Shown here: positions 2,744 through 61,903 of the stretch, piece by piece
How positions within the stretch are numbered: the stretch's first letter is position 1
Layout: each line of letters begins with the position of its first letter
Origin: Crassostrea angulata
Taxonomy: Eukaryota
NCBI RefSeq assembly: GCF_025612915.1
Contig: NC_069115.1
Location: forward strand, 8,295,492-8,359,491
Direction of reading: 5' to 3'
Length of the DNA stretch: 64,000 nucleotides
Translations under genes and position numbers: made by a program
The notes under the pieces: model-generated
What the model was told of the DNA's origin: nothing
Databases searched by the model: none
The model's input: the letters and a program-made list of their open reading frames with translations, nothing else

Positions 2744-3372
2744 CCCCTGCGAATGTTTTTGTCATTTAAATTTAGACCACGTGGTTTTACTTGACCCTTT
2801 CAGTTTCTATTTCCTAGAATCTAGTTACATGTACTTGCAGTCAAATATAAAATCTATACTTTTTTTTTATTTTAAACTTTATATCCATTTATTGGTGGAT
2901 ACGCTGTACAATGAGTTCTAGAAAGAAATGGGACAATAGAAATAGGTTTTTATGATCTTGCAACAATTAACATGCTTAGAAGCGACCCCCCCCCCCCCCC
3001 GGATTAATTTTCAATCCGCGCCTGACCTAGTCATAGCATCAGTAGTGAAACAGACTATACTATTTTATGAAGGATGTTCCTTGAAATTGGCTCGATAAAC
3101 TATGTTTTAATTCAAAACAGACATTCTTTTATTTTTTGAAAAGCATGGTAATGCACACATAAGCATCAAACATGGCTATGATTTTATTATTAAAAGCAAC
3201 CCAATGTTTATATTTTAAGAATATTTTCCGAACACTTATACTTCCGCTCAAAATTTCACAGGAACTGAACAAATCTCGGGGAAGTCTCGAGAGCTTTCAT
3301 TCGAGCACCTCTGGATTTATTACATACTAAGCAACGATAAGGAAAACATTCCGAACACATTCGCAGGGGTGT
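2744..3372. repeat. Candidate MITE (~630 bp) bounded by the 15-bp inverted repeat CACCCCTGCGAATGT, containing a C15 homopolymer
   Basis: 2744-2758 CACCCCTGCGAATGT vs 3358-3372 ACATTCGCAGGGGTG; TATTT on both flanks; poly-C at 2986-3000. Confidence 0.35.
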
Positions 3373-3526
3373 ATTTGTCGACAGTTATATAGATTTTTAA
3401 ACCGATCTGGTGCATTTCAAAAGTAGAACTTTCTATTTCTCATTAACTTACTTTGTTTCACGTTTGACGCAATTTATAATTATATGAACTCTAACAATGC
3501 AATTTTTTTTTATTTCAAGACATGCC

Positions 3527-3533
3527 ATTATCA
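3527..3533. repeat. 7-bp direct repeat ATTATCA flanking the palindromic element on the left (candidate target-site duplication)
   Basis: ATTATCA lies directly outside the left terminus; an identical 7-mer sits outside the right terminus at 15323-15329; it is direct, not inverted. Confidence 0.6.
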
Positions 3534-4417
3534 GAGGTATAGAATAGGGTACTTTTTATATCCTATAACCAGGCACTATAACCAGGATGTGCGCATTCGC
3601 GAACCAACTTTCCATCGGGATCGGTAAACGATTGGGAGGAAATTCGAAAGCTATTTGGAGGAACTTCGAACTGATATATGTGCAATTTAAAAATGCGATT
3701 TTTATATGAAAAATATGATCAGAAGTGATAAAAATGTTATGTACATTAGATTTTACACCAAAAAATTAAATAAATAATTGAGAGAACAATCAAAATCAAT
3801 GTTACAGGAAAACAACAGGCACTTAGCATCGGAGGGGGGGGGGGGTTGGAATGGGGGCAGGGACAGGGGGACGGGGCCGCCCTCCAGCACACGTTTTCTC
3901 GCAGCAAATATTTTTCTTGAATTTACTTATAAAAAAGTAAATTAACATACAGTTGCACCCCCCAATGCTTTTGGGACCATGTAAAATTTGAAATGAAAGA
4001 GAGGAAATAAACTGTGAAATTGAAGTTAAAGGTACACTTAGCCCCCTACCCCCACGGATTAGGATTTTCAATTATTTAAAAAGTATTTTTGAGTTGGTTT
4101 TTTTTTTCAAGGCAAGATTGGATGAGTCTGCCCTCAACCCACTTTGCTACGATGCTGGGTGCCTGAACAAAATATCATGGTTTCATTACATACATGTATG
4201 CTAGTATAAAGACTTTATGTAAACCAATATTATCTCGTGCATTGTTCCATTCACCAGGTTCTACAAACACCTTAGTCCAAAATAAATAAAAAATCCAAGA
4301 CTAGGAGGGGAAGAAAGAAGAAATCTATTTTCCTTTTTTTTTTTACTCAGGAGCTATTTTGTTGGGGGGGGGGGGTATTAGGGATGAACAGGTCACTGAC
4401 CCCTTGTAGATCTACCA
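3534..4417. repeat. Left unique terminal inverted-repeat segment of the foldback element (contains G12 and G11 homopolymer runs)
   Basis: Reverse-complement match to 14401-15322 read by eye at ~98% identity; G-runs at 3834-3845 and 4365-4375. Confidence 0.8.
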
Positions 4418-7400
4418 ATGACCTATCACCAGGGTCTGTATACACATAACCAGGGTCAGTATACCCATCATCATGGTCTCCAGGGTCAGAGTACCTATCA
4501 CCAGAGTCTGTGTACCCTTCACCAGAGTCTGTACACCCATAACCAGGGCCAGTATACCCATCACCAGGGTCTCCATACCTATCACCAGGGTCAGAGTACG
4601 TATCACCAGAGTTTGTGTGCCCATCACCAGGGTCTGTACACCCATAACCAGGGTCAGTATACCCATCACCAGGGTCTCCATACCTATCACCAGGGTCAGC
4701 GTGCGTATCACCAGAGTCTGTGTGCCCATCACCAGAGTCTGTACACCCATAACCAGGGTTAGTATACCCATCACGAGGGTCTCCATACCTATCACCAGGG
4801 TCAGAGTGCGTATCACCAGAGTCTGTGTGCCCATCACCAGGGTCTGTACGCCAATAACCAGGGTCAGTATACCCATCACCAGGGTCTCCATACCTATCAC
4901 CAGGGTCAGAGTGCGTATCACCAGAGTCTGTGTGCCCATCACCAGAGTCTGTACACCCATAACCAGGGTTAGTATACCCATCACGAGGGTCTCCATACCT
5001 ATCACCAGGGTCAGAGTGCGTGTCACCAGAGTCTGTGTGCCCATCACCAGGGTCTGTACGCCAATAACCAGGGTCAGTATACCCATCACCAGGGTCTCCA
5101 TACCTATCACCAGGGTCAGAGTACGTATCACCAGAGTCTTGGTGCCCATCACCAGAGTCTGTACACCCATAACTAGGGTCAGCATACCCATCACCAGGGT
5201 CTCCATACCTATCACCAGGGTCAGAGTACGTATCACCAGAGTCTGTGCGCCCTTCACCAGAGTCTTTACACCCATAACCAGGGCCAGTATACCCATCACC
5301 AGGGTCTTCATACCTATCACCAGGGTCAGAGTACGTATCACTAGAGTCTGTGTGCCCATAACGAGGGTCTGTATACCCATAACAGGGCCAGTATACCCAT
5401 CACCAGAGTCTCCATACCTATCACAAGGGTCAGAGTACGTATCACCAGAGTTTGTGTGCCCATCACCAGAGTCTATACACCCATAACCAGGGCCAGTATA
5501 CCCATCACCAGGGTCTCCATACCTATCACCAGGGTCAGAGTACGTGTCACCAGAGTTTGGGTGCCCATCACCAGGGTCTGGATACCCATAACCAGGGTCT
5601 TCATACCTATCACCAGGGTCAGAGTACGTATCACCAGAGTCTGTGAGCACATCACAAGTGTCAGTATACACATAACCAGGGCCAGTATACCCATCACCAG
5701 GGTCTCCACACCTATCACCAGGGTCAGAGTACGTATCACCAGAGTCTGTGTGCTCTTCACCAGAGTCTGTACACCCATAACCAGGGCCAGTATACCCATT
5801 ACCAGGGTCTTCATACCTATCACCAGGGTCAGAGTACGTATCACCAGAGTCTGTGTGCCCATCACCAGGGTCTGTATACCCATAACCAGGGCCAGTATAC
5901 CCATCACCAGGGTCTCCATACCTATCACCAGGGTCAGAGTACGTATCACCAGAGTCTGTGTGCCCATCACCAGAGTCTGTACACCCATAACCAGGGCCAG
6001 TATACCCATCACCAGGGTCTCCATACCTATCACCAGAGTCAGAGTACGTGTCACCAGAGTTTGTGTGCCCATCACCAGGGTCTGGATACCCATAACCAGG
6101 GTCAGTATATCTATCACCAGGGTCTCCATACCTATCACCAGGGTCAGAGTACGTATCACCAGAGTCTGTGTGCCCATCACCAGGGTCTGTATACCCATAA
6201 CCAGGGCAAGTATACCCATCACCAGGGTCTCCATACCTATCACCAGGGTCAGAGTACGTGTCACCAGAGTTTGTGTGCCCATCACCAGGGTCTTCATACC
6301 TATCACCAGGGTCAGAGTACGTATCACCAGAGTCTGTGTGCCCATCACCAGGGTTTGTATACCCATAACAGGGCCAGTATACCCATCAACAGGGTCTCCA
6401 TACCTATCACCAGGGTCAGAGTACGTATCACCAGAGTCTGTGTGCCCATCACCAGAGTCTGTGCACCCATAACCAGGGCCAGTATACCAATCACGAGGGT
6501 CTCCATACCTATCACCAGGGTCAGAGTACGTGTCACCAGAGTTTATGTGCCCATCACCAGGGTCTGGATACCCATAACCAGGGTCAGTATACCTATCACC
6601 AGGGTCTCCATGCCTATCACCAGGGTCAGAGTACGTATCACCAGAGTCTGTGTGCCCATCACCAGGGTCTGTATACCCATAACCAGGGCCAGTATACCCA
6701 TCACCAGGGTCTCCATACCTATCACCAGGGTCAGAGTACGTATCACCAGAGTTTGTGTGCCCATCACCAGGGTCTGTACACCCATAACCAGGGTCAGTAT
6801 ACCAATCACCAGGGTCTCCATACCTATCACCAGGGTCAGCGTGCGTATCACCAGAGTCTGTGTGCCTATCACCAGGGTCTGTATACCCATACCATAACCA
6901 GGGTTAGTATACCCATCACCAGGGTCTCCATACCTATCACCAGGGTCAGAGGACGTGTCACCAGAGTCTGTGTGCCTATCACCAGGGTCTGTACACCCAT
7001 AACCAGGGCCAGTATAACCATCACCAGGGTCTCCATACCTATCACCAGGGTCATTATATCCATCACTAGAGTTTGTGTGCCCAACAACGGGGTCTGTACA
7101 CCCATCACCAGGGTCAGTATACCAATCACCTGGGTCTGTATACCCATAACCAGGGTCAGTATACCCGTCACCAGGGTCTTCATATCTATCACCAGGATCA
7201 GAGTACGTATCACCAGAGTCGGTACACCCATAACCAGGGTCAGTATACCCATCACCAGGGTATGTACACCCATAACCAGGGTCATTATACCCATCACCAG
7301 GGTATGTACACCCATAACCAGGGTCAGTATACCCATCACCACGGTCTCAATACCTATCACCAGGGTCAGAGTACGTATCACCAGAGTCTGTGTGCATGCT

Positions 7401-8560
7401 CATGACCAGGGTCTGTACATCTGTAGCCAAAGTCAGCATACCCATCACCAGGTTCTCAATACCTATCACCAGGGTCATAATGCCTATCACCAGAGTCAGA
7501 GTACGTATCACCAGAACTATAAAAATATCACCTGGGTCATTATACCTTTTAGTAGGGTCAGTGTTCGTAGTACTAGGGTCTGTGTGCCCATCATCATGGT
7601 CTGTATATTCATAACAAAGGTCAGTTTACCCTTCACCAGGGTCTCCATACCTATCACCAGGGTCAGCGTGCGTATCACCAGAGTCTGTGTGCCCATCACC
7701 AGGGTCTGTACACCCATAACCAGGGCCAGTATACCCATCACGAGGGTCTCCATACCTATCACCAGGGTCAGAGTGCGTATCACCAGAGTCTGTGTGCCCA
7801 TCACCAGGGTCTGTACGCCAATAACCAGGGTCAGTATACCCATCACCAGGGTCTCCATACCTATCACCAGGGTCAGAATACGTGTCACCAGAGTCTGTGT
7901 GCCTATCACCAGGGTCTGTACACCCATAACCAGGGCCAGTATACCCATCACCAGGGTCTCCATACCTATCACCAGGGTCATTATATCCATCACTAGAGTT
8001 TGTGTGCCCAACAACGGGGTCTGTACACCCATCACCAGGGTCAGTAAACCAATCACCCGGGTCTGTACACCCATAACCAGGGTCAGTATACCCATCACCA
8101 GGGTCTTCATATCTATCACCAGAGTCAGAGTACGTATCACCAGAGTCTGTACACCCATTACCAGGGTCAGAATACCCATCACCAGGGTATGTACACCCAT
8201 AACCAGGGTCATTATACCCATCACCAGGGTATGTACACCCATAACCAGGGTCAGTGTACCCATCACCAGGGTCTCAATACCTATCACCAGGGTCAGAGTA
8301 CGTATCACCAGAGTCTGTGTGCTCATGACCAGGGTCTGTACATCCGTAGCCAAAGTCAGTATACCCATCACCAGGGTCTCAATACCTATCACCAGGGTCA
8401 TAATGCCTATCACCAGAGTCAGAGTACGTATCACCAGAACTGTAAACATATCACCTGGGTCATTATACCTTTTAGTAGGGTCAGTGTTCGTAGTACTAGG
8501 GTCTGTGTGCCCATCATCATGGTTTGTATATTCATAACAAAGGTCAGTTTACCCTTCACC
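4418..8560. repeat. Satellite array, left arm: 105-bp higher-order repeat made of 5 x 21-bp subunits (consensus subunit CCCATCACCAGGGTCTGTACA), ~39 units, degenerating towards the centre
   Basis: Visible 21-nt periodicity grouped in fives; the ORF-track translations show a 35-aa period (ITRVCVP ITRVCTP ITRVSIP ITRVSIP ITRVRVR). Confidence 0.85.
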
Positions 8561-9227
8561 AGGGTCTTAATACTTTTACCAGGATAGTGTACGCATCAAT
8601 AGGGTCTGTGTGCCCATCACCAGGGTCAGTATACCTAACCAACAGTCAGTGCACTTATCATTAGGGTTTGTATATCCATTACCTGAGTCAGGTAATACTG
8701 ACCCTGTTGATAAGTAGAGTGACACTGGTGATAGGTATACTGATCCTGGTGAAGAGCACACATACCTTGGTGATACGTACACTCATGACCCTTGTGATAG
8801 GTATACTGACTCAGGTGATGGTTATTCTTACCCTGGTTATAGATTTTGAGATTCTGGTGTTACGTATGCTGACCTTAATATATCTACACTTTTGTGTATA
8901 CCGACTCTGGTGATGGATATATACTGACCCCTGTGATTGGCTACAGACCCTTGTGATACGTACACTGACTCTGTCGATAGGTATACTGACCATGGTGATA
9001 GAGAATGTGATAGATATACTGGTGATAAATGTACTGACTCTTGTGATAGGTATACTGACCTTGGAGATGGGCCCTCAGACCCACGGATGCGTACACTGAC
9101 ACTGCCGTTAGGTAAACTAACTCTGGTGATAGGTAATAGGTAGAGTTATCCTGGTGAAAGTCTACTGATCAAGGTAATGGATGTACAAACCCTGAAGATA
9201 AGTGCACTGACTGTTGTGATAGATATA
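8561..9227. repeat. Degenerate central junction of the palindrome; symmetry centre ~8680-8694 (TACCTGAGTCAGGTA)
   Basis: Diverged 21-bp subunits switch orientation around the near-palindromic 15-mer at 8680-8694. Confidence 0.6.
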
Positions 9228-12200
9228 CTGACCCTAATGATGGGCACACAGACTCTATTGATTCGTAAACTATTCCTGGTGATAAGTATTTAGACCCTGG
9301 TGATGGGCATACTGGCCCTGGTTATGGGGGTACAGACTCTGGTGATGGGCACACAGACTCTGGTGGTACGTACTCTGACCCTGGTGATAGGTATGAAGAC
9401 CCTGGTGATGGGTAAACTGGCCCTGGTTATGGGTGTACAGACTCTGGTGAAGGGCACACAGACTCTGGTGATACGTACTCTGACCCTGGTGATAGGTATG
9501 GAGACCCTGGTGATGGGTATACTGACCCTGGTTATGGGTATCCAGACCCTGGTGATGGGCACACAAACTCTGGTGACACGTACTCTGACCCTGGTGATAG
9601 GTATGGAGACCCTGGTGATGGGTATACTGGCCCTGGTTATGGGTGTAAAGACTCTGGTGATGGGCACACAGACTCTGGTGATACGTACTCTGACCCTGGT
9701 GATAGGTATGGAGACCCTGGTGATGGGTATACTGGCCCTAGTTATGTGTATACTGACACTTGTGATGGGCACACAGACTCACGTGATACGTACTCTGACC
9801 CTGGTGATAGGTATGAAGACCCTGGTGATGGGTATACTGACCCTGGTTATGGGTATCCAGACCCTGGTGATGGGCACACAGACTCTGGTGATACGTACTC
9901 TGACCCTGGTGATAGGTATGAAGACCCTGGTGATGGGTATACTGGCCCTGGTTATGGGTGTAAAGACTCTGGTGAAGGGCACACAGACTCTGGTGATACG
10001 TACTCTGACCCTGGTGATAGGTATGAAGACCCTGGTGATGGGTATACTGACCCTGGTTATGGGTATCCAGACCCTGGTGATGGGCACACAAACTCTGGTG
10101 ACACGTACTCTGACCCTGGTGATAGGTATGGAGACCCTGGTGATGGGTATACTGGCCCTGGTTATGGGTATACAGACCCTGGTGATGGGCACACAGACTC
10201 TGGTGATACGTACTCTGACCCTGGTGATAGGTATGAAGACCCTGGTGATGGGTATACTGGCCCTGGTTATGGGTGTACAGACTCTGGTGATGGGCACACA
10301 GACTCTGGTGATACGTTCTCTGACCCTGGTGATAGGTATGGAGACCCTGGTGATGGGTATACTGGCCCTGGTTATGGGTGTACAGACTCTGGTGATACGT
10401 ACTCTGACCCTGGTAATAGGTATGGAGACCCTGGTGATGGGTATACTGGCCCTGGTTATGGGTGTACAGACTCTGGTGATGGGCACACAGACTCTGGTGA
10501 TACGTACTCTGACCCTGGTGATAGGTATGAAGACCCTGGTGATGGGTATACTGGCCCTGGTTATGGGTGTACAGACTCTGGTGATGGGCACACAGACTCT
10601 GGTGATACGTACTCTGACCCTGGTGATAGGTATGGAGACCCTGGTGATGGGTATACTGGCCCTGGTTATGGGTGTACAGACTCTGGTGATGGGCACACAG
10701 ACTCTGGTGATACGTACTCTGACCCTGGTGATAGGTATGAAGACCCTGGTGATGGGTATACTGGCCCTGATTATGGGTGTACAGACTCTGGTGAAGGGCA
10801 CACAGACTCTGGTGATACGTACTCTGACCCTGGTGATAGGTATGAAGACCCTGGTGATGGGTATACTGGCCCTGGTTATGGGTGTAAAGACTCTGGTGAA
10901 GGGCACACAGACTCTGGTGATACGTACTCTGACCCTGGTGATAGGTATGGAGACCCTGGTGATGGGTATACTGACCCTGGTTATGGGTATCCAGACCCTG
11001 GTGATGGGCACACAAACTCTGGTGACACGTACTCTGACCCTGGTGATAGGTATGGAGACCCTGGTGATGGGTATACTGGCCCTGGTTATGGGTATACAGA
11101 CCCTGGTGATGGGCACACAGACTCTGGTGATACGTACTCTGACCCTGGTGATAGGTATGAAGACCCTGGTGATGGGTATACTGGCCCTGGTTATGGGTGT
11201 ACAGACTCTGGTGATGGGCACACAGACTCTGGTGATACGTTCTCTGACCCTGGTGATAGGTATGGAGACCCTGGTGATGGATATACTGACCCTAATGATG
11301 GGCACACAGACTCTATTGATTCGTAAACTATTCCTGGTGATAAGTATTTAGACCCTGGTGATGGGCATACTGGCCCTGGTTATGGGGGTACAGACTCTGG
11401 TGATGGGCACACAGACTCTGGTGGTACGTACTCTGACCCTGGTGATAGGTATGAAGACCCTGGTGATGGGTATACTGGCCCTGGTTATGGGTGTACAGAC
11501 TCTGGTGATGGGCACACAGACTCTGGTGATACGTACTCTGACCCTGGTGATAGGTATGGAGACCCTGGTGATGGGTATACTGACCCTGGTTATGGGTATC
11601 CAGACCCTGGTGATGGGCACACAAACTCTGGTGACACGTACTCTGACCCTGGTGATAGGTATGGAGACCCTGGTGATGGGTATACTGGCCCTGGTTATGG
11701 GTGTACAGACTCTGGTGATGGGCACACAGACTCTGGTGATACGTACTCTGACCCTGGTGATAGGTATGAAGACCCTGGTGATGGGTATACTGGCCCTGGT
11801 TATGGGTGTACAGACTCTGGTGAAGGGCACACAGACTCACGTGATACGTACTCTGACACTGTTGATAGGTATGAGGACCCTGGTGATGGGTATACTGACC
11901 CTGGTTATGGGTATCCAGACCCTGGTGATGGGCACACAGACTCTGGTGATACGTACTCTGACCCTGGTGATAGGTATGAAGACCCTGGTGATGGGTATAC
12001 TGGCCCTGGTTATGGGTGTAAAGACTCTGGTGAAGGGCACACAGACTCTGGTGATACGTACTCTGACCCTGGTGATAGGTATGGAGACCCTGGTGATGGG
12101 TATACTGACCCTGGTTATGGGTATCCAGACCCTGGTGATGGGCACACAGACTCTGGTGATACGTACTCTGACCCTGGTGATAGGTATGAAGACCCTGGTG

Positions 12201-24874: not shown

Positions 24875-25480
24875 GTGAGTAGATTTTTTAGTGGACTTCA
24901 CTTTCGTGAGAAGAAGTTTTCAGGTGAGTAGATTTTAGGGATGTAAGTGGATTTTACTGCTGGGGGAAATTCATCTGTTAAAAATGAAGTTTTCTGAATA
25001 TTTTATGCTCAACATAATGGGAGTTTTTGAAATTCAGAGCATATCGTACGTATAACTTCATATAACAGCAATTTCACTGTTAATTTCCTTCCTTTCAATA
25101 CAATTTTTTATATGCTCCCAAAAACGTGGGGGCCAACTCCATCTCAATTTACTTTTTTTTTCTCTGTAAATTAAAAAAAAAAAATGTTTGCTGTGGAAAA
25201 AAAAGCCCCCCTGGCCCCCTGATGCTACATGTATTTGCCTGACATGAATGTTTCTACCACCAAAATTTTTGTTTGATTGCTCTTTATTATTTTGTATTAA
25301 TTTTATCAGGACTTTGTATTTCACGGCATGCATGTTTCTTTGTGATTTTTGCACTATGCTGAACCATCAAAAATGAACTTATGATCATGATAAAGACTGA
25401 TTTAACTTTTACTATGTTTCTTGGTATGAATTTGGTATCTATAACTCACAAAATTGATGTTTTCATCATGTTGACTTTAG

Positions 25481-27139: not shown

Positions 27140-27960
27140 CATGTTTTTATACCCCCCGCAAACGAAGTTTGGGGGGGGTATATAGGAATCACCTTGTCCG
27201 TCCGTCCGTCTGTCCGTCTGTCTGTTCAATTCGTGTCCGGTCCATATCTTTCTTATGGAGAAACATTGGAAGTTTTTACTTCACACAAATATTGCTTATG
27301 ACCTAAGGGTGTGTCATGACCTTGACCCAAGGTCATTTGGGCAAGGTCAAGGTCACTGGCAGAAAAAGTTCAAAATTTGTGTCCGGTCCATATCTTTTTA
27401 ATGGAGAAACATTGGAAGTTCTTATTTCACACAAATATTGCTTATGACCTAAGGGTGTGTCATGACCTTGACCCAAGGTCATAAGGATTAAGGTCACTGG
27501 CAGAAAAAGTTCAAAATTCGTGTCCGGTCCATATCTTTTTGATGGAGAAACATTAGAAGTTCTTACTTCACACAAAGATTGCTTATGACCAAAGGGTTTG
27601 TCATGACCTTGACCCAAGGTCATTTGGGCAAAGTCAAGGTCACTGGCAGAAAAAAATCAAAATTCGTGTCCGGTCCATATCTTTCTTATGGAGAAACATT
27701 TGAAGTTCTTACTTCACACAAAAATTGCTTATGACCTAAGAGTGTGTCATGTCCTTGACCCAAGGTCATTTGAGCAAGGCCAAGGTCACTGGAAGTAAAA
27801 GTACAAAATTCATGTCCAGTCCATATCTTTTTAATGGAAAAATATTGGAAGTTCTTAATTCACATCAAGATTGCTTATAGTCTGAAGGTGTGTCATGACC
27901 TTGACCCAAGGTCAATTGAGGAAGTTCAAGGTCATTGTTTCAAAAAAAAATCGGGCTCAG
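27140..27960. repeat. Intronic (CCGT)n microsatellite followed by a ~146-bp tandem repeat (~5.5 units); same architecture as the pearl/Helentron internal arrays
   Basis: GTCCGTCCGTCCGTCTGTCCGTCTGTCTG at 27195-27223; repeat anchors GTGTCCGGTCCATATCTTT at 27233, 27379, 27520, 27666 and 27812; each unit contains TGACCTTGACCCAAGGTCA and AGGTCAAGGTCA motifs. Confidence 0.75.
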
Positions 27961-38724: not shown

Positions 38725-39188
38725 GTAAGAAATAGGAAACTGAATTAGTTACTGGTAATACTGTACTAAAGCAATGTAATATGAGGTCACAAGTAAGACA
38801 AAGTCTCAAACAGGTTAGAATACAAGTAGAGCAATGTAATGACATATATAATATCTAATAATGTCTTAAGACAGGGCTCCATCAAACCTTGTAGCTTTAA
38901 AGTTTTCTGAAGAACATGATTATTTGTTTATTTCACTTAGTTTGAGCCAATAAATCTAAGACTGACACTTTCACTGTAAAGTAACTGTTTATGTGCTTTA
39001 AAACATTGCTTTTTCTGCATTATGATGAAATTGCAACTTGTAAAATAAATGAAAAATATCATAAGCTTTCTTTTTTTATAAAATAAAAAGCCTTAGGGAA
39101 ATTAAACACCACCCTGTCACATCTGTTTTTGTAAATATTGGCCTGATAAACAAGTAATTAATTTTTATGGCCTTACTCTCTTTGCCAG

Positions 39189-39775
39189 GTTCCAAACCAA
39201 GAGTTGAGAAAGTTATAGATGAATCTACAGGTAGCCCCACATTTTATGGGTCTGCTAAAGGTTTCAAAGAATCAACTTTAAAAATAATGAGAAAAAGGGG
39301 GTTTTTTTGCAGGAGGTCGACAGGTGTAATATCTGTAAATATAGATCAAACATGTTCACTACCTCCTACACTAGATCCTAAACCACTTCCTACACTAGAT
39401 CCTACACCAACTCCTACACTAGATTCTATGCCACAGCCTCCTGTATTAGCTCCTAAACCTATACCACCAGCACTCGAAGTGGAGCCTAATTTTTACAATT
39501 CACTATCAAATCGATCCCAAACAGTTTTAAGTAAACAGGCACGTATACCAGCTTTACCAAGCATGGAAGCTTCTAGGTCTTCTGATGAACTGCAGCCCCG
39601 GTTAAAATCTACACAGCCTGTTTCGTGGAGATCATGTCCATTACCCCTTCACAGGCCCTCAAAGAAGAGAGTACTTTCTCCACCTTCAGATCCCTTTGTG
39701 TCAATTTATGATGAATCTGAACCACTGTTGGGAGAGGAGAATGTCCCCCTCATCCAAGCATTCCCCCGGATGTGA
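39189..39775 (+). CDS. PARP4: PARP4 terminal exon (proline-rich C-terminus, stop TGA at 39773-39775)
   Basis: Acceptor CTTTGCCAG|GT; a 195-codon ORF rich in P/S/T (..TLDPKPLPTLDPTPTPTLDSMPQPPVLAPKPIPP..), like the proline-rich tail of vertebrate PARP4; the last ~10 codons and the stop lie inside a repeat copy; internal introns cannot be excluded. Confidence 0.5.
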
Positions 39776-44836: not shown

Positions 44837-44962
44837 GATATGCCGAAGGCTGGATGAAAAGAATGATATGAATGTTGATATCACGTTACAAGGGAAGTTG
44901 CTGCCTTCAGAAGAAGGTGAAAAATCAACAAGAGGTTAGTATAGAGAAATATCTGAGTAACA

Positions 44963-44998: not shown

Positions 44999-45082
44999 AT
45001 TCTGATCACATTTTGTCTGTCGTCCGTCTGTCCGTCCGTCTGTCCGTAAACTTTTCACATTTTCAACATCTTCTCAAGAACT

Positions 45083-45114
<32 letters not shown>

Positions 45115-47098
45115 TCATCCTTAGGCAAAGGGGATTCAAAGTTGTGAAAATTAAGGGTCACACCCGTTTTCAAGGGGAGATAATTAGAAATTAATGAAAA
45201 ATTTCGAGAAATCTTTAAAAATCTTCTTCTCAGAAACTAAACAGCCAGGAAATCTGAAACTTGTGTGGAAGCATCCTCAGGTAGTGTAGATTCAAAGTTG
45301 TGAAAATCATGACCCCCAGGGGTAGGGTGGGGCCACAATGGGGGGTCGAAATTTTACATAGGAATATATAGAGTAAATCTTTAAAAATCTTCTTCTCAGA
45401 AACTAAACAGCCAGGAAATCTGAAACTTGTGTGGAAGCATCCTCAGGTAGTGTAGATTCAAAGTTGTGAAAATCATGACCCCCCAGGGGTAGGGTGGGGC
45501 CACAATGGGGGGTCGAAGTTTTACATAGGAATATATAGAGTAAATCTTTAAAAATCTTCTTCTCAGAAACTAATCAGCCAGGAAAGCTGAAACTTGTGTG
45601 GAAGCATCCTCAGGTAGTGTAGATTCAAAGTTGTGAAAATCATAACCCCTGGGGTTAGGTTGGGGCCACAATGGGGGGTCGAAGTTTTACATAGGAATAT
45701 ATAGAGTAAATCTTTAAAAACCTTCTTCTCAAAAAATAATCAGCCAGGAAAGCTGAAACTTGTGTGGAAGCATCCTCAGGTAGTGTAGATTCAAAGTTGT
45801 GAAAATCATGATCCCTGGGGGTAGGGTGAGGCCACATTGGGGGGGGGGGGGGTGTTAAAATTTTACATAGGAATATATAGAGTAAATCTTTAAAAATCTT
45901 CTTCTCAGAAACTAATCAGCCAGGAAAGCTGAAACTTGTGGGAAGTATCCTCAGGTAGTGTAGATTCAAAGTTGTGAAAATCATGATCCCTGGGGGTAGG
46001 GTGAGGCCACATTGGGGGGGGGGGTGTTAAAGTTTTACATAGGAATAAAGAGTAAATCTTTAAAAATCTTCTTCTCAGAAACTAATCAGCAAGATGATTC
46101 TTTTTAATTGTTAAGACTTTGGCTCCTGGACAATCCTTCGGCCTCACAAGAAGGTTCAGAGTTTGATGTAGCTAAATATCCCATATATAAACAATTGTAA
46201 AGGATCTTTTTGAGAACTGCAATACTCAACATGTGATATGACTATAAAATTGAAGCAGGCAGCTATTTTTTCATTAGAATCTTTTTGTATTACTGTTTTG
46301 GGTTAATTATTGCCTTTGATTTATTGATTCTTGAATATTTTAATTAATGCATCCGCTGTTAACCAATTAATGTGATGATTATTTTTATACAATAATAAAT
46401 ATTCAATGTATATAAGTTGTTCTGCATAAGTAGTTTTGGGTTAGGCTGGATTAGTTTGTTTATTTTTGATTTCCAATTTTTAGATACTATGAATTATTTT
46501 AGGCTGGCACATATATAGGGACAGTGTCTATTGCATTGCAACGAGTGACTGTTTGGGGTTAAACTTGAACAGGTACGGAGAGATTGAGGGTGTTGACATC
46601 CCTGCTCTTTCTAGTCTTCGTGTTTTTCTAACCAACGATACAGAATGTGCGGTCATTTCTGCCCTGTATCGCATTGATACAAGTGTGCGGTCATACCTGC
46701 TTGTATTGGTGGTGGTTGCGGCGGAGCACTAGTGTATGGTCATCCCTGCTGGTGTTCTGGCCTTTCTAGTGCAAGTGTGCGGCACTCCCTGCGTTAGGTT
46801 GAGCTGTTGGCGCAAGTGTGAGGTCATCCCTGCTTGCGTTATCTCTGCTTGCATTAACGTTGGTACCTGTTGAGTTGCGTAGGTGTGCGGTCATCCCTGC
46901 CTGCATAACGTCGAGTCCCTATATATGTGCAGGAGCGGTGATTAAAGTCTGCTCTTGTAAATATTTTCAGCAATCAGGGCTATCCGAGTTCCAAGGGGGA
47001 AAAATGGATTTTATTTATACAGGATCTACATGTATTAATGTACATTGTCCAGATTGTATTATGACTCCATTAAGCTGACTTTATCATACCTATTGTTC

Positions 47099-58537: not shown

Positions 58538-60810
58538 ACATCTTCTCAAGAACCACTGGGCCAATTTCAACCCAACTTTGCATAAAGCATCCTTAGCCTA
58601 AAGGGATTCAAAGTTGTGAAAATTAAGGACCATGCCTTTTTTTGCAAAGGGAGATAATTAGGAATTTATGAAAAATTTGAGAAATTTTCAAAAATCTTCT
58701 CACGAACCATTAGACCAGGAAGGCTGAAACTTGTGTGGAAGCATTCTCAGGTAGTGTAGATTCAACGTTGTGAAAATCATGATTCCCTGGGGTAGAGTGA
58801 GGCCACAATGGGGGGGGGGGGGGGGTCAAAGTTTAACAAAGGAATATATAGAGTAAATCTTTAAAAATCTTCTCAGAAACTAATCAGCCAGGAAATCTGA
58901 AACTTGTGTGGAAGCATCCTCAGGTAGTGTAGATTCAAAGTTCTGAAAATCATGATCCCTGGGGGTTGGGTGGGGCCACATGGGGGGGGGGGGGGTGTTA
59001 AAGTTTTACATAGGAACATATAGAGTAAATCTTTAAAAATCTTCTTCTCAAAAACTAATCAGCCAGGAAAGCTGAAACTTGTGTGGAAGCATCCTCAGGT
59101 AGTGTAGTTCTGAAAATAATGACACCCCGGGTAGTAGGGTGGGGCCACAATGGATGGGGGGGGGTCAAAGTTTTACATAGGAATATATAGAGTAAATCTT
59201 TAAAAATCTTCTTCTCAGAAACTAATCAGCCAGATGATTCTTTATGATTGTTAAGATTTTGGCCCCAGGACAATTCTTCGGCCTCACAAGAAGGTTCAGA
59301 GTTTGATGTACCGTATTTTTCGGGGCATAGGCCGGTATTTTTTTCCACCGATGAGCGAGCCCCGGCCTATCCCCCGGGATCGGCTATTCTTAGACTCAAA
59401 GTTAAAAAAATTGAACAGTAAAATATAAAATCCACTGTTTTTATCCGTTGTACTGTTGTAGCTATTTATTATGAGGGTTGTTTTTTTTTCATCCGTTTGA
59501 ACTATTGTTCGATAGTTGTCCAGTTGATAATTTTTGTAATGACATCGTGAGTAATAAAATTTACAGTACTGTACAAGGTATTTCTTTACAATCCCAATCA
59601 AAAGATTTTTTTTCCCACGTTCGTGTATGAACCCTGGAAACTGTTATTGCGTAGTAAAAAAGAAAACGAAACCGGGTAGAATGTAATATGACGGAATTTT
59701 GGCGAATTCTTCATGTCTGCGTTCATAGGAATCACTGGTCTTGGGTGTAGAATAAATCAAATGCTATGTGTTTTTACAGTTAATTTTCTGTTGGATGAAA
59801 TAACGGTATTCTGGTGTCGTGTGTATATACAAAGGTGTGAAACCCGTGACTAAAACACAGCCTGGGGGCACGTAGCCTAGTGTACACAGTTACACTTCAT
59901 TGCATTAACTGTGTTTTTAACATTACAACTTCTCTGCATAACGACAAGTCACTATATAATTAATTAATGGAAAGAACACAAATTAAATATTTTATGTTTG
60001 GTATTTCGTTTTCTCATTCATAGCGATTACGGGGGATAACTCTATTTGAATATGAAACCACGTGTTGAGCTAATGGACGCCATACCCCGTATTTACAAGT
60101 AGCTTTCAAAGTATAACTTGATTAAATGAGATTTAGCAATAAGGTATTAATAAAATATAAAAGGTTTGGTAAAATATTATATTTAGTTCTACCAGACAGA
60201 ACCACGGAGGTTGGTGTTGCAATTATATTTACACTATGTAAAATTACGATGCACAACGATACACCGACGAATACAGAAGAGACCAAACAGCCACAAAACA
60301 CAGATTAATTTTTAAAAATTGCTTGAAATATATATGTTAAGCAAATTTAATAACTTTAATTACTCTTTTGACTTTCTACATCGATATTCTGAAAGTATAT
60401 ACTTAATACGGTGACTTTCTTTATCAGCGGTCATACTTTCACTATAGTAATCATCGATTGAAAACCGGCTTATCCCCCAATTAGGCTAGTCTAAGGATTT
60501 TTCTTGAATTTTGTCTAAAAATTAGCAATTCGGCCTATGCCCCACATCGACATATGCCCCAAAAAATACGGTAGGTTTATATCCCATATATATAAACAAT
60601 TGTTAAGGATCTTTTTGAGAACTGCAATACTCAACATGTGATATGACTATAAAATCACCCTGTTAGAAAAGGGACTAATGATTATAAACATAAGAATATC
60701 CAGGGGGGAAAATTGATTTTATTTATACAGGATCTACATGTATTATTGTACATTGTCCAGATAGTTTGTATTATGACTCCATTAAGCTGATTGTATCATA
60801 CCTATTGTTC

Positions 60811-61400: not shown

Positions 61401-61903
61401 GTAGCCTTCTCTCTCTTCCACTCCTTGGCCAAGTATATTTTAAGCAATAATATTTTATCTATTTAAAAGTACAATATCTACAATTTAAAGCTTAAAAATT
61501 ATTTTTCCCATGTCACATAGGATTGATCCTATGACACTTGTGATTTTTCCTATGTGACATAAGATTGTACACATGTGACATAAATTTGTACCCCTGTGAC
61601 ATTAGATTGTAATCACGTGACAGAGGATTGTACCCATGTGACATAGGAATGTATCCTTAGCACAATTGTTCCTATGTCACATAGATTTGTTTCGAAATCA
61701 CATAGAATTGTTCCCATGTCACATAGGATGTGTTTACATGTGTTCCCATGTCACATAGAATTGTTCCACTACCATTGTCCACTAAAGGATGGTTACCATG
61801 TCAAATGTCTTTTATTTTGACACCTATCACCTCCCTTGTTTATACATTTAACTATTTAATGTAAAAATGCCATTTAACAAGTTATTAAAATTATTTTTAA
61901 CAG

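Follow-up and report, generated by a model that had tools for sequence, protein, structure and literature searches.

The window, a stretch of 64,000 nucleotides of Crassostrea angulata DNA, contains an inverted structure of 11,789 bp with ends at 3534 and 15322, composed of two arms that meet within satellite DNA (Table 1). The left arm measures 5,154 bp; the right arm, at 6,635 bp, is 1,481 bp longer. They carry 39 and 52 recognizable 105-bp units, respectively. The outermost 30 nt of the two arms are identical at all 30 positions in inverted orientation, and the homology ends abruptly at these termini. The outer ends sit in distinct unique flanks, one on each side. A possible stop codon of a putative minus-strand exon (15357–15484) lies approximately 30 bp from the structure.

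Table 1. Features of the inverted structure and its immediate flanks, in window coordinates
Feature	Position	Strand	Description
Left 7-bp direct repeat ATTATCA	3527–3533		Candidate target-site duplication; abuts the inverted terminus
Left flanking domain (FD)	3534–4428	+	895 bp, non-satellite; begins GAGGTATAGAATAGGGTAC
Left tandem-repeat domain, CgiSat33	4429–7980	+	Mostly canonical, identity to consensus at least 0.9
Left-arm tandem duplication	6800–8641	+	Period of about 932 bp; copies 6800–7722 and 7732–8641, 94.3% identity
Left inner domain, decayed CgiSat33 monomers	7980–8687	+	Per-unit identity 0.72–0.92, then below 0.6
Perfect 9+1+9 palindrome	8678–8696		ATTACCTGA-G-TCAGGTAAT; satellite strand switch at 8687
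Middle segment	8697–9168	-	472 bp, most decayed monomers; right-arm orientation
Right inner domain, decayed monomers	9169–9375	-	9169–9305 is the specific inverted partner of 8555–8687
Right tandem-repeat domain, CgiSat33	9376–14412	-	Strongly homogenized; patchwork of recent duplications
Right FD	14413–15322	-	910 bp, inverted copy of 3534–4428; closes with the reverse complement of GAGGTATAGAATAGGGTAC
Right 7-bp direct repeat ATTATCA	15323–15329		Matches the left copy

The two FDs are 99.2% identical, differing by seven substitutions in approximately 890 bp (0.79%) and by seven indels. These indels lie mostly inside homopolymer runs, which points to some sequencing noise in the consensus. 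The outer boundary of the FD reads GAGGTATAGAATAGGG, and the left FD contains subterminal direct repeats formed by two copies of CTATAACCAGG (3563–3573 and 3576–3586). The 9-mer ATAACCAGG of these repeats occurs once in every satellite unit; the motif common to terminus and satellite is statistically weak, with a score of 24 against a null of 18.1 ± 2.2 (maximum 30). Elsewhere in the window, a partial match to the FD is located at 25063–25181, with 74–78% identity over 100–120 bp. At both ends of the structure, ATTATCA matches at seven of seven positions; abutting 7-mers would match by chance with an empirical probability of 2e-4, which increases to 1.3e-3 when 0–2 nt of slack is permitted. 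The direct repeat stops at 7 bp, where the 8-mers CATTATCA and ATTATCAA differ. At this one locus, the repeat is indicative of a target-site duplication. If the structure is an insertion, the predicted empty site would be GACATGCC-ATTATCA-ATGGGCTTC; neither an empty site nor a host repeat bearing the flanks was found within the window. In an alternative alignment, the inverted homology is prolonged through CCATT..ATCA with two gaps, under which the target-site duplication would vanish.

The arrays in both arms are composed of CgiSat33, with 21-bp monomers arranged five per 105-bp unit. The monomers were located by consensus scanning and dynamic-programming segmentation, using the reference consensus from the supplement of PMC8268682. 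The arm consensus differs from the published one at one of 105 positions on the left and at three on the right, and 24 left and 44 right units are at least 90% identical to it. Every monomer core left of 8687 is in plus orientation and every core right of it in minus orientation, while a 9-bp deletion is common to both arms. In the left arm, the canonical array is broken at 7050–7640 by the first copy of the duplicated decayed block. The 932-bp duplication covers the decayed inner block together with about three canonical units; its copies are 5.7% diverged, and the same event is seen in the unit-type strings STUVWXY / STaWbY. The right array has a mean of 4.9 mismatches per 105 bp and includes stretches of 400–740 bp at 98% identity or above (some reaching 100%), with duplication lags of 924, 1449, 1554, 2058, 2478, and 3507 bp.

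An earlier note on this DNA had equated the 1.48-kb excess of the right arm with one super-repeat of about 1448 bp, gained by unequal exchange within a single arm. The right arm does show a lag of 1449 bp, but its five other lags are equal or stronger. The excess is instead the net result of the 932-bp left duplication, several right-arm duplications, and the one-sided middle segment of approximately 470 bp. Unequal exchange or duplication is supported as the process, and it reshaped the two arms independently. The near-identity attributed to the outer units holds for the FD and the first 105-bp unit, and is lost from about 4562 inward. Collinearity of the arms is likewise limited to the FD and the first satellite unit. 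Further inward, the collinear partner ranks only 15th to 44th among placements, and the collinear divergence of 7.2% equals the ordinary between-unit background. Judged by these comparisons, the arms beyond the first unit are best described as independent arrays of one satellite.

The 15-mer TACCTGAGTCAGGTA, described previously as near-palindromic and as the centre of symmetry, is present at 8680–8694 and extends to the perfect 19-nt palindrome, whose central position coincides with the strand switch. Within the 10-kb satellite, no other perfect palindrome has arms of 7 nt or more. The junction consists only of satellite, and no non-satellite spacer was found at the strand switch, in agreement with the reported absence of a unique spacer and with the reported arm lengths of about 5.15 and 6.63 kb. 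A decayed zone is present on both sides, as had been noted, although it extends over approximately 0.7 kb each (left, about 7980–8687; right, 8688 to about 9375) and not 1.2 kb. The decay on the left appears longer because the 932-bp block is tandemly duplicated, and the monomer order 1-2-3-4-5 is still readable in the left inner domain. The segment at 8555–8687 pairs by homology with 9169–9305, at approximately 88–90% identity and with odd variants in common. Consequently, 8697–9168 constitutes an unpaired segment, and position 8687 by itself does not define the axis of homology. This middle segment, bounded by TCAGGTAAT (8688–8696) and TCAAGGTAAT (9169–9178), is about 70% identical to canonical units and has a GC content of 43% versus 52%; no specific partner for it was found in the left arm.

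Alignment of the arms against distance from the centre, which the earlier note had proposed, revealed that the divergence is not uniform but climbs toward the centre. Among positionally homologous segments, it is 0.8% at the outer ends and reaches 10–20% beside the centre. The gradient claimed for an old palindrome decaying from its centre outward is real, whereas the sharp termini, the candidate target-site duplication, and the modular layout favour a foldback-type transposon insertion over a palindrome that formed and decayed in place. The decayed inner and middle parts may be old monomers that were inherited and are not reached by array homogenization, or they may result from palindrome-centre instability. 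P0001 resembles the decayed centre no more closely than it resembles canonical units, and this comparison accordingly does not demonstrate an inherited centre. The one-sided middle segment would ease the retention of a long palindrome.

Based on its organization at the sequence level, the region 3534–15322 probably represents a single insertion of a non-autonomous foldback-type DNA transposon. It possesses two long terminal inverted repeats (TIRs) with identical termini, and the number of repeats differs between the arms. The candidate target-site duplication flanks it at this one locus, and the arms are modular, with an FD, tandem repeats, and inner and middle domains according to the scheme of PMC4079207. 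In the proposed mechanism, a transposase supplied in trans would recognize the identical termini, perhaps together with the CTATAACCAGG repeats next to them. The target would be cut with a 7-bp stagger and the element pasted in, thereby duplicating ATTATCA. The sequence itself shows that unequal exchange or slippage altered each arm array on its own, be it before insertion, after it, or both; the left 932-bp duplication and the right-arm duplications with lags of 0.9–3.5 kb yield unequal arms and a loss of collinearity. By analogy with described families, unequal arms and degenerate inner and middle domains would be ordinary traits of such an element (PMC4079207, PMC3573991). It may have inherited its decayed centre instead of acquiring it in situ. 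The 7-bp duplication falls within the 7–8 bp of the P superfamily (Galileo-like) and is shorter than the 8–10 bp, typically 9 bp, of the Mutator/Foldback superfamily (Drosophila FB and Tetris). Most foldback elements are assigned to the latter superfamily, with which a 7-bp duplication is at odds. The foldback-type element is a known kind, not yet reported for CgiSat33 or for bivalves.

A close parallel in layout is Tetris, a foldback transposon of Drosophila virilis with FDs of up to 866 bp (PMC4079207). Similar to Tetris, the oyster element is non-autonomous, consists almost entirely of long TIRs, and is built from the same modules, with outer FDs of up to 866 bp there and of 895 and 910 bp here. 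Repeat number is unequal in the two arms, and in Tetris it also varies between alleles. The tandem repeats double as a genomic satellite, and a short motif is common to the FD and the repeats, albeit weakly in the oyster element. In contrast, the arms of Tetris reach at most 1.7 kb with few 220-bp repeats, whereas those described here span 5.2–6.6 kb with about 35–52 units of 105 bp. The target-site duplications of Tetris are 8–10 bp and Mutator-like, compared with 7 bp here, and the middle segment of the oyster element is decayed satellite itself. The hosts are an insect and a bivalve, respectively, and the likeness described here is one of layout. Galileo, a foldback-like Drosophila element of the P superfamily, has a 7-bp target-site duplication (PMC3573991, PMC3688188). 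It shares with the oyster element this duplication length, long TIRs with internal tandem repeats, and a difference in repeat number between the TIRs of one copy ("independent TIR dynamism"). However, its TIRs measure at most about 1.25 kb with 2–3 repeats of approximately 210 bp, and its autonomous copies carry a gene for a THAP-domain P-like transposase; its resemblance to the oyster element is one of structure. The oyster arms of 5–6.6 kb are far longer than those of either Tetris or Galileo, which argues against the foldback assignment.

The usual carriers of oyster satellites are the Helentron-associated non-autonomous elements Cg_HINE (PMC7492417). They resemble the present structure as mobile elements, dispersed over the genome, in which conserved end modules enclose a satellite-like array, and the window contains a typical example, a CgiSat01b array following a GTCY-type microsatellite (45015–46090). 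HINEs are characterized by a microsatellite in the left module, a 3' palindrome in the right module, short subterminal inverted repeats, end modules that differ from each other, and no target-site duplication (PMC7492417). Here, both ends are formed by one inverted 0.9-kb sequence, a 7-bp duplication is present, and the array switches strand. Large genomic palindromes, such as the ampliconic palindromes of sex chromosomes, are maintained by gene conversion, with collinear arms that are near-identical throughout, usually a unique spacer, and genes. The oyster structure resembles them as a kilobase-scale inverted repeat with near-identical outer arms, but it has no genes and its collinearity is limited to the outer 1 kb. 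Unlike in a conversion-maintained palindrome, with its whole-arm collinearity and near-identity, the collinear placement ceases to be the best match at about 4560.

A chromosomal palindrome could also have formed in place, if a CgiSat33 array and approximately 0.9 kb of its flank had been inverted and duplicated, for example by hairpin or foldback repair, with the 7-bp repeat arising by coincidence. Its later history would comprise decay from the centre outward and the lengthening of one arm by unequal exchange. Such an origin accommodates the climb in divergence from 0.8% at the outer ends to 10–20% near the centre and the clearly independent remodelling of the arms. It is also consistent with a junction that is a perfect 19-nt palindrome inside a monomer, as snap-back at a short inverted repeat predicts, and with the failure to find a further copy of the element. 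We nevertheless regard it as unlikely. It leaves to chance an abutting 7/7 repeat at sharp, identical termini, with a probability of about 2e-4 to 1e-3, and uniform point mutation cannot yield 25–30% divergence at the centre against 0.8% in the outer domains. A more than 15-fold excess in mutation rate, or ongoing conversion confined to the ends, would be needed. Furthermore, the left 932-bp duplication (5.7%) looks older than the divergence between the FDs, but the right arm lacks it. The dispersal of CgiSat33 on 8–9 chromosomes and the apparent presence of an inverted FD pair at another locus likewise speak against an origin in place.

An assembly artefact appears even less plausible, whether as a misjoin of two CgiSat33 arrays in opposite orientation, an array collapse or expansion, or a chimeric palindromic long read. 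Long homogeneous arrays are hard to assemble, and the right arm contains stretches of 98–100% identity at several lags; the FD indels are mostly of the homopolymer type, and exact arm lengths depend on read-level support. However, a foldback read would give symmetric, near-identical arms up to the contig end, whereas the arms here are unequal and non-collinear with different unique flanks. The same 7-bp duplication at both ends suggests one insertion, and the specific homology across the junction between 8555–8687 and 9169–9305 is unexpected for a random misjoin. The earlier argument against a fresh foldback artefact is upheld by the same unequal, non-collinear arms, distinct flanks, and 7-bp direct repeats at both ends. 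We give next to no credence to a pair of divergently oriented genes for heptad-repeat proteins of the beta-roll or antifreeze-like type, despite open reading frames of up to 1,023 amino acids and a frame (MGILALVMG...) that scores 143.6 bits against Pfam PF21300, the grass antifreeze beta roll. Four of the six frames are open simultaneously as a by-product of the repeat, the variable columns are distributed 9/9/10 across the codon phases, and the sequence is that of a catalogued satellite. A search of 5.8 billion proteins with the translated satellite frames returned a single uncharacterized gene model, at 47% identity. The PF21300 match itself was rejected as a periodicity artefact, a summed V-x-G match with no individually significant stretch. 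No credible Pfam domain was found in the structure, and no match to a tRNA/SINE origin or to Rfam families was obtained in 3000–16000. By these measures the structure lacks coding capacity, in keeping with a non-autonomous element.

With regard to further copies of the putative foldback-type element, a protein search with the six-frame FD translation returned one gene model only. The end of the Magallana gigas gene model K1PGZ0 contains peptides derived from FD 4112–4195 on one strand, followed by peptides from 4174–4079 on the other strand; this order points to two FDs in inverted orientation elsewhere in the genome. LOC117693138, also a gene model of Magallana gigas, has CgiSat33-like monomers in one orientation running into the other. 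These two gene models offer hints, at the level of sequence, of further copies; no contig placement was found for either. An exact scan for the 21-nt terminus gave no matches in viral contigs and a single match in metagenomes (L001), which was dismissed as coincidental, since nothing else of the window is present in it. No transposase open reading frame is present in the window, and these searches of viral contigs, metagenomes, proteins, and the window itself yielded neither a further complete copy nor an empty site or a transposase. The mobility of the element is accordingly inferred.

In Crassostrea (Magallana) gigas, CgiSat33 is dispersed on 8–9 of the 10 chromosomes and has been catalogued without any Repbase or transposon association (PMC8268682). 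That catalogue describes neither flanks nor a 21-bp substructure nor an inverted arrangement, whereas the array analyzed here is part of an element that has inverted termini and is flanked by a repeat resembling a target-site duplication. The spread over 8–9 chromosomes fits carriage by a mobile element. As a tentative extension, CgiSat33 arrays might have been spread genome-wide by an undescribed foldback family of elements exceeding 10 kb, with 7-bp duplications, possibly P-like, in which the decayed centre is inherited and stabilizing.

Oyster satellites are unusual among satellites in that they are scattered as short arrays, and their spread has mostly been attributed to Helitron/Helentron carriers. 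If the foldback reading is true, carriage by such elements explains the presence of CgiSat33 on 8–9 chromosomes and constitutes a second dispersal mechanism, by a route independent of Helitrons and Helentrons. The element would also be the first of the foldback type described in a bivalve. Genome curators should annotate palindromes of this kind as transposon insertions and not discard them as assembly artefacts. Under this reading, inverted repeats of 10 kb with perfect ends could also give rise to inversions and fragile sites in oyster genomes, as has been shown for Galileo in Drosophila.

The window has a eukaryotic look, with a GC content of approximately 35% and numerous dispersed tandem repeats, and it contains an inverted structure (the element, 3534–15322) whose two arms meet at position 8687. 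Both arms are filled by a 21 bp minisatellite, which spans 4429–14412 with indels nearly absent; its copies lie only on the plus strand in 4429–8496 and only on the minus strand in 8729–14392, with none elsewhere in the 64 kb. The centre is marked by a perfect 9+1+9 palindrome (8678–8696), unique in the satellite for perfect arms of at least 7 nt, and within it we recovered the 15-mer (8680–8694) on which an earlier note had centred the symmetry. The monomers form a five-monomer unit of 105 bp. CgiSat33 is one of 52 Pacific oyster satellites whose consensus sequences are published in the supplement of PMC8268682, and the left-arm and right-arm consensus sequences differ from it at 1 and 3 of 105 positions, respectively. 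At the sequence level, the satellite of the arms is CgiSat33, which is reported to occupy 0.05% of the genome, with ~3,000 monomers on 8–9 of 10 chromosomes, and is listed without a Repbase or transposon association (PMC8268682). The inverted homology runs beyond the satellite into approximately 0.9 kb of ordinary sequence per side, the flanking domains (FDs), and 3525–4450 aligns with 15333–14391 at 96.5% identity, indels counted. With their ends fixed, the arms as assembled are 5,154 and 6,635 bp long, in agreement with the inequality described earlier, and differ by 1,481 bp.

The arms are mirror images at their outer ends only. Between the left (895 bp) and right (910 bp) FDs there are 7 substitutions (0.79%) and 7 indels, the latter mostly within homopolymer runs, and an irregular array start, including a 9 bp deletion after the third monomer, is common to both arms. 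From the second 105 bp unit inward (~4562), the collinear partner in the opposite arm ceases to be the closest match; such partners rank 15–44 among placements, and the collinear divergence of 7.2% equals the general unit-to-unit divergence. The near identity formerly ascribed to the outer units is accordingly confined to the FDs and the array start. Typing of the 105 bp units showed that the left arm is heterogeneous and the right arm strongly homogenised (means of 7.7 and 4.9 mismatches per unit, respectively), and 40 of the 45 canonical right-arm units have their nearest neighbour in the same arm. The right arm consists of a mosaic of recent duplications, with 400–740 bp stretches at 98% identity or more and lags of 924, 1449, 1554, 2058, 2478, and 3507 bp, while the left arm carries a single 932 bp tandem duplication (6800–7722 and 7732–8641, 94.3% identity). 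Therefore, the 1.48 kb difference between the arms is the net of many events; the single ~1448 bp super-repeat previously invoked to explain it corresponds to a 1449 bp lag that is not special among the others. These findings show that the two arrays were remodelled independently of each other.

Toward the centre, the right arm keeps an identity of 0.9 or above to the CgiSat33 consensus down to ~9375, with values of 0.70 and ~0.65 beyond. Left-arm identity drops at ~7050–7640, returns to 0.96 at 7666–7876, and drops again from ~7980 to the centre. This double dip is caused by the 932 bp duplication, and the decayed zone therefore measures ~0.7 kb per side, so that central decay is borne out at a smaller extent than the ~1.2 kb first estimated. 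The monomer order 1-2-3-4-5 is still traceable in the decayed left part, which therefore consists of old CgiSat33 units and not foreign DNA. The final 130 bp of the left arm (8555–8687) pairs with 9169–9305 at ~88–90% identity, with unusual variants in common. The intervening one-sided segment shows ~70% identity to canonical units, shows no greater similarity to either neighbour (65–67%), and has a shifted GC content (43% vs 52%). The centre thus holds satellite only, as the claim of no unique spacer implied, though with this one-sided segment.

The inverted homology ends sharply, and each terminus reads GAGGTATAGAATAGGGTACTTTTTATATCC, identical at 30 of 30 positions. A 7 nt direct repeat, ATTATCA, abuts both termini (3527–3533 and 15323–15329), and the flanks outside it are unrelated, unique sequence on each side. 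The empirical chance of an abutting 7-mer match against the window background is 2e-4, or 1.3e-3 with 0–2 nt of slack. A gapped alternative, CCATT-ATCA-GAGG versus CCATTGATAATGAGG, requires two gaps; it would be explained if the target CCATTATCAATGG were itself nearly palindromic. Two subterminal direct repeats, CTATAACCAGG, begin 29 and 42 nt inside the terminus. The 9-mer ATAACCAGG also starts the fifth monomer of each satellite unit and is nearly absent elsewhere in the window, but the terminus–satellite alignment scores only 2.7 SD above shuffles, a hint that this motif is common to the subterminal repeats and the satellite units.

Considering the identical inverted termini, the target-site-like duplication, a body of two long inverted arms only, and no coding capacity, the element is probably an insertion of a non-autonomous foldback-type DNA transposon carrying CgiSat33. 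The earlier note held instead that a palindrome had formed and decayed in place. Divergence does climb from the outer to the inner part of the arms, and the junction resembles a snap-back, but the 7 bp duplication would then have to be a coincidence, and one and the same duplication would need to have decayed by 25–30% centrally but by 0.8% in its outer domains. Such an origin is unlikely; the observations of the note largely hold, the inward rise in divergence included, and a foldback insertion is the more economical explanation. The array lengths rest on the assembly and need reads for confirmation. Nevertheless, an assembly artefact is improbable, since unequal, non-collinear arms, differing unique flanks, a duplication common to both ends, and specific homology across the junction exclude a symmetric foldback-read artefact, in line with the note's own rejection of a fresh foldback. 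That the repeats are coding is scarcely credible: four of six frames are open, the variation is unphased, and the match to Pfam PF21300 (grass antifreeze beta roll) contains no individually significant stretch. This match, at 143.6 bits from the plus-frame satellite translation of 11358–14429 (MGILALVMGVQTLV...), is an artefact of V-x-G periodicity and a potential pitfall for automated annotation.

The module order of the element fits the scheme of Tetris, a Drosophila foldback-type transposon in which the flanking domain reaches 866 bp at most and is succeeded by the tandem-repeat outer domain, then by the inner and middle domains (PMC4079207). Galileo, also from Drosophila, has 7 bp target-site duplications and differing internal tandem-repeat numbers in its two terminal inverted repeats, resembling the oyster element in both respects (PMC3573991). 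Arms of unequal length and arrays that change independently are thus usual in the foldback class, and by this analogy the unequal arms would need no special locus history. The duplication length is a pointer to P-like elements, which it suits better than Mutator/Foldback elements (8–10 bp). A HINE, the usual, Helentron-derived carrier of oyster satellites, does not fit: its left and right modules differ and it lacks a target-site duplication (PMC7492417), whereas the element has the same inverted ends and a 7 bp duplication. The published layout of Cg_HINE (PMC7492417) is the same as that of a microsatellite preceding a CgiSat01b array elsewhere in the window.

Coordinates of features in the window
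Feature	Position	Strand	Detail
Left and right FDs	3534–4428; 14413–15322		
One-sided middle segment	8697–9168		~470 bp; monomers very old; TCAGGTAAT and TCAAGGTAAT at its borders
FD part seen in K1PGZ0	4079–4195; mirror 14650–14766	both, in succession	
Possible terminal exon	15357–15484	minus	follows AG acceptor; reads ...TVIESTTTTTERPGINLALLLGASVLPLLLLVPAGLVGALTSG*
Hairpin or MITE-like palindrome	16888–17037		150 bp; 86% self-complementary; ~1.6 kb right of the element
Short tandem-repeat clusters	22568–22921; 61501–61741		17–21 bp, 81 bp; TATGACA / ATGTGACAT-like motifs
Sole other FD similarity in the window	25063–25181	inverted	74–78% over 100–120 bp, to FD 3911–4028
Tandem repeat	27228–27934		146/287 bp period; 4.9 or 2.4 copies; 87–88% identity
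Transcript blocks	38873–39743 and 44860–44946	plus	Logan contig alignment
Tandem arrays	45015–46090; 58682–59233		166–173 bp period
Microsatellite	45015–47		GTCTGTCCGTCC
CgiSat01b array	45209–46090		166 bp; Cg170 type, C. gigas satellitome

Hints of further copies are indirect. A six-frame protein query with the FD gave a sole match, K1PGZ0_MAGGI, an M. gigas gene model ('thyroid adenoma-associated protein'). Its C-terminal 56 residues correspond first to one strand of FD 4112–4195 (27 of 28 identical) and after that to the opposite strand of 4174–4079, so that this other M. gigas gene model contains FD sequence as an inverted pair. This suggests that the model absorbed an inverted pair of FDs of this transposon. 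The satellite-frame query likewise had a sole match, LOC117693138, whose N-terminus reads frames of one monomer orientation and then those of the other, and to which the element centre is no more similar than canonical units. DNA scans of viral and metagenome collections for other copies returned nothing or a chance match. The FD similarity within the window may reflect a shared older repeat module.

Beside the element, the peptide of the possible terminal exon has a hydrophobic, GPI- or TM-like tail and gave zero matches in a protein search; its stop codon lies ~30 bp from the right terminus, which may place the insertion in a 3′ UTR. A spliced alignment in two blocks (96.9% and 100% identity) links the window to a Logan transcript contig (ERR13913530, L002), which encodes a proline-rich protein of ~220 aa without a Pfam domain; the window therefore contains an expressed gene. 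Together with the CgiSat33 and CgiSat01b matches, this transcript assigns the window to Crassostrea/Magallana gigas or a very close relative. The CgiSat consensus file contains neither of the two 16-mers with which the 146/287 bp repeat was sought. The short tandem-repeat clusters may belong to a different transposon family, as its subterminal repeat regions.

A foldback element of this kind would be mobilised by a transposase acting in trans, through cut-and-paste with a 7 bp staggered target cut, and its satellite repeats might offer extra transposase binding sites, as in Galileo. Changes in array length would stem from slippage or unequal sister exchange. The decayed centre may consist of inherited old monomers escaping homogenisation or be a breakage/repair product at the palindrome tip; whichever its origin, the asymmetry of the middle would favour the stability of a palindrome this long. 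Our literature search found no report tying CgiSat33, or bivalves, to foldback elements. The foldback reading would supply CgiSat33 with a carrier, and confirmation by a genome-wide search would make such an element a first among bivalves.
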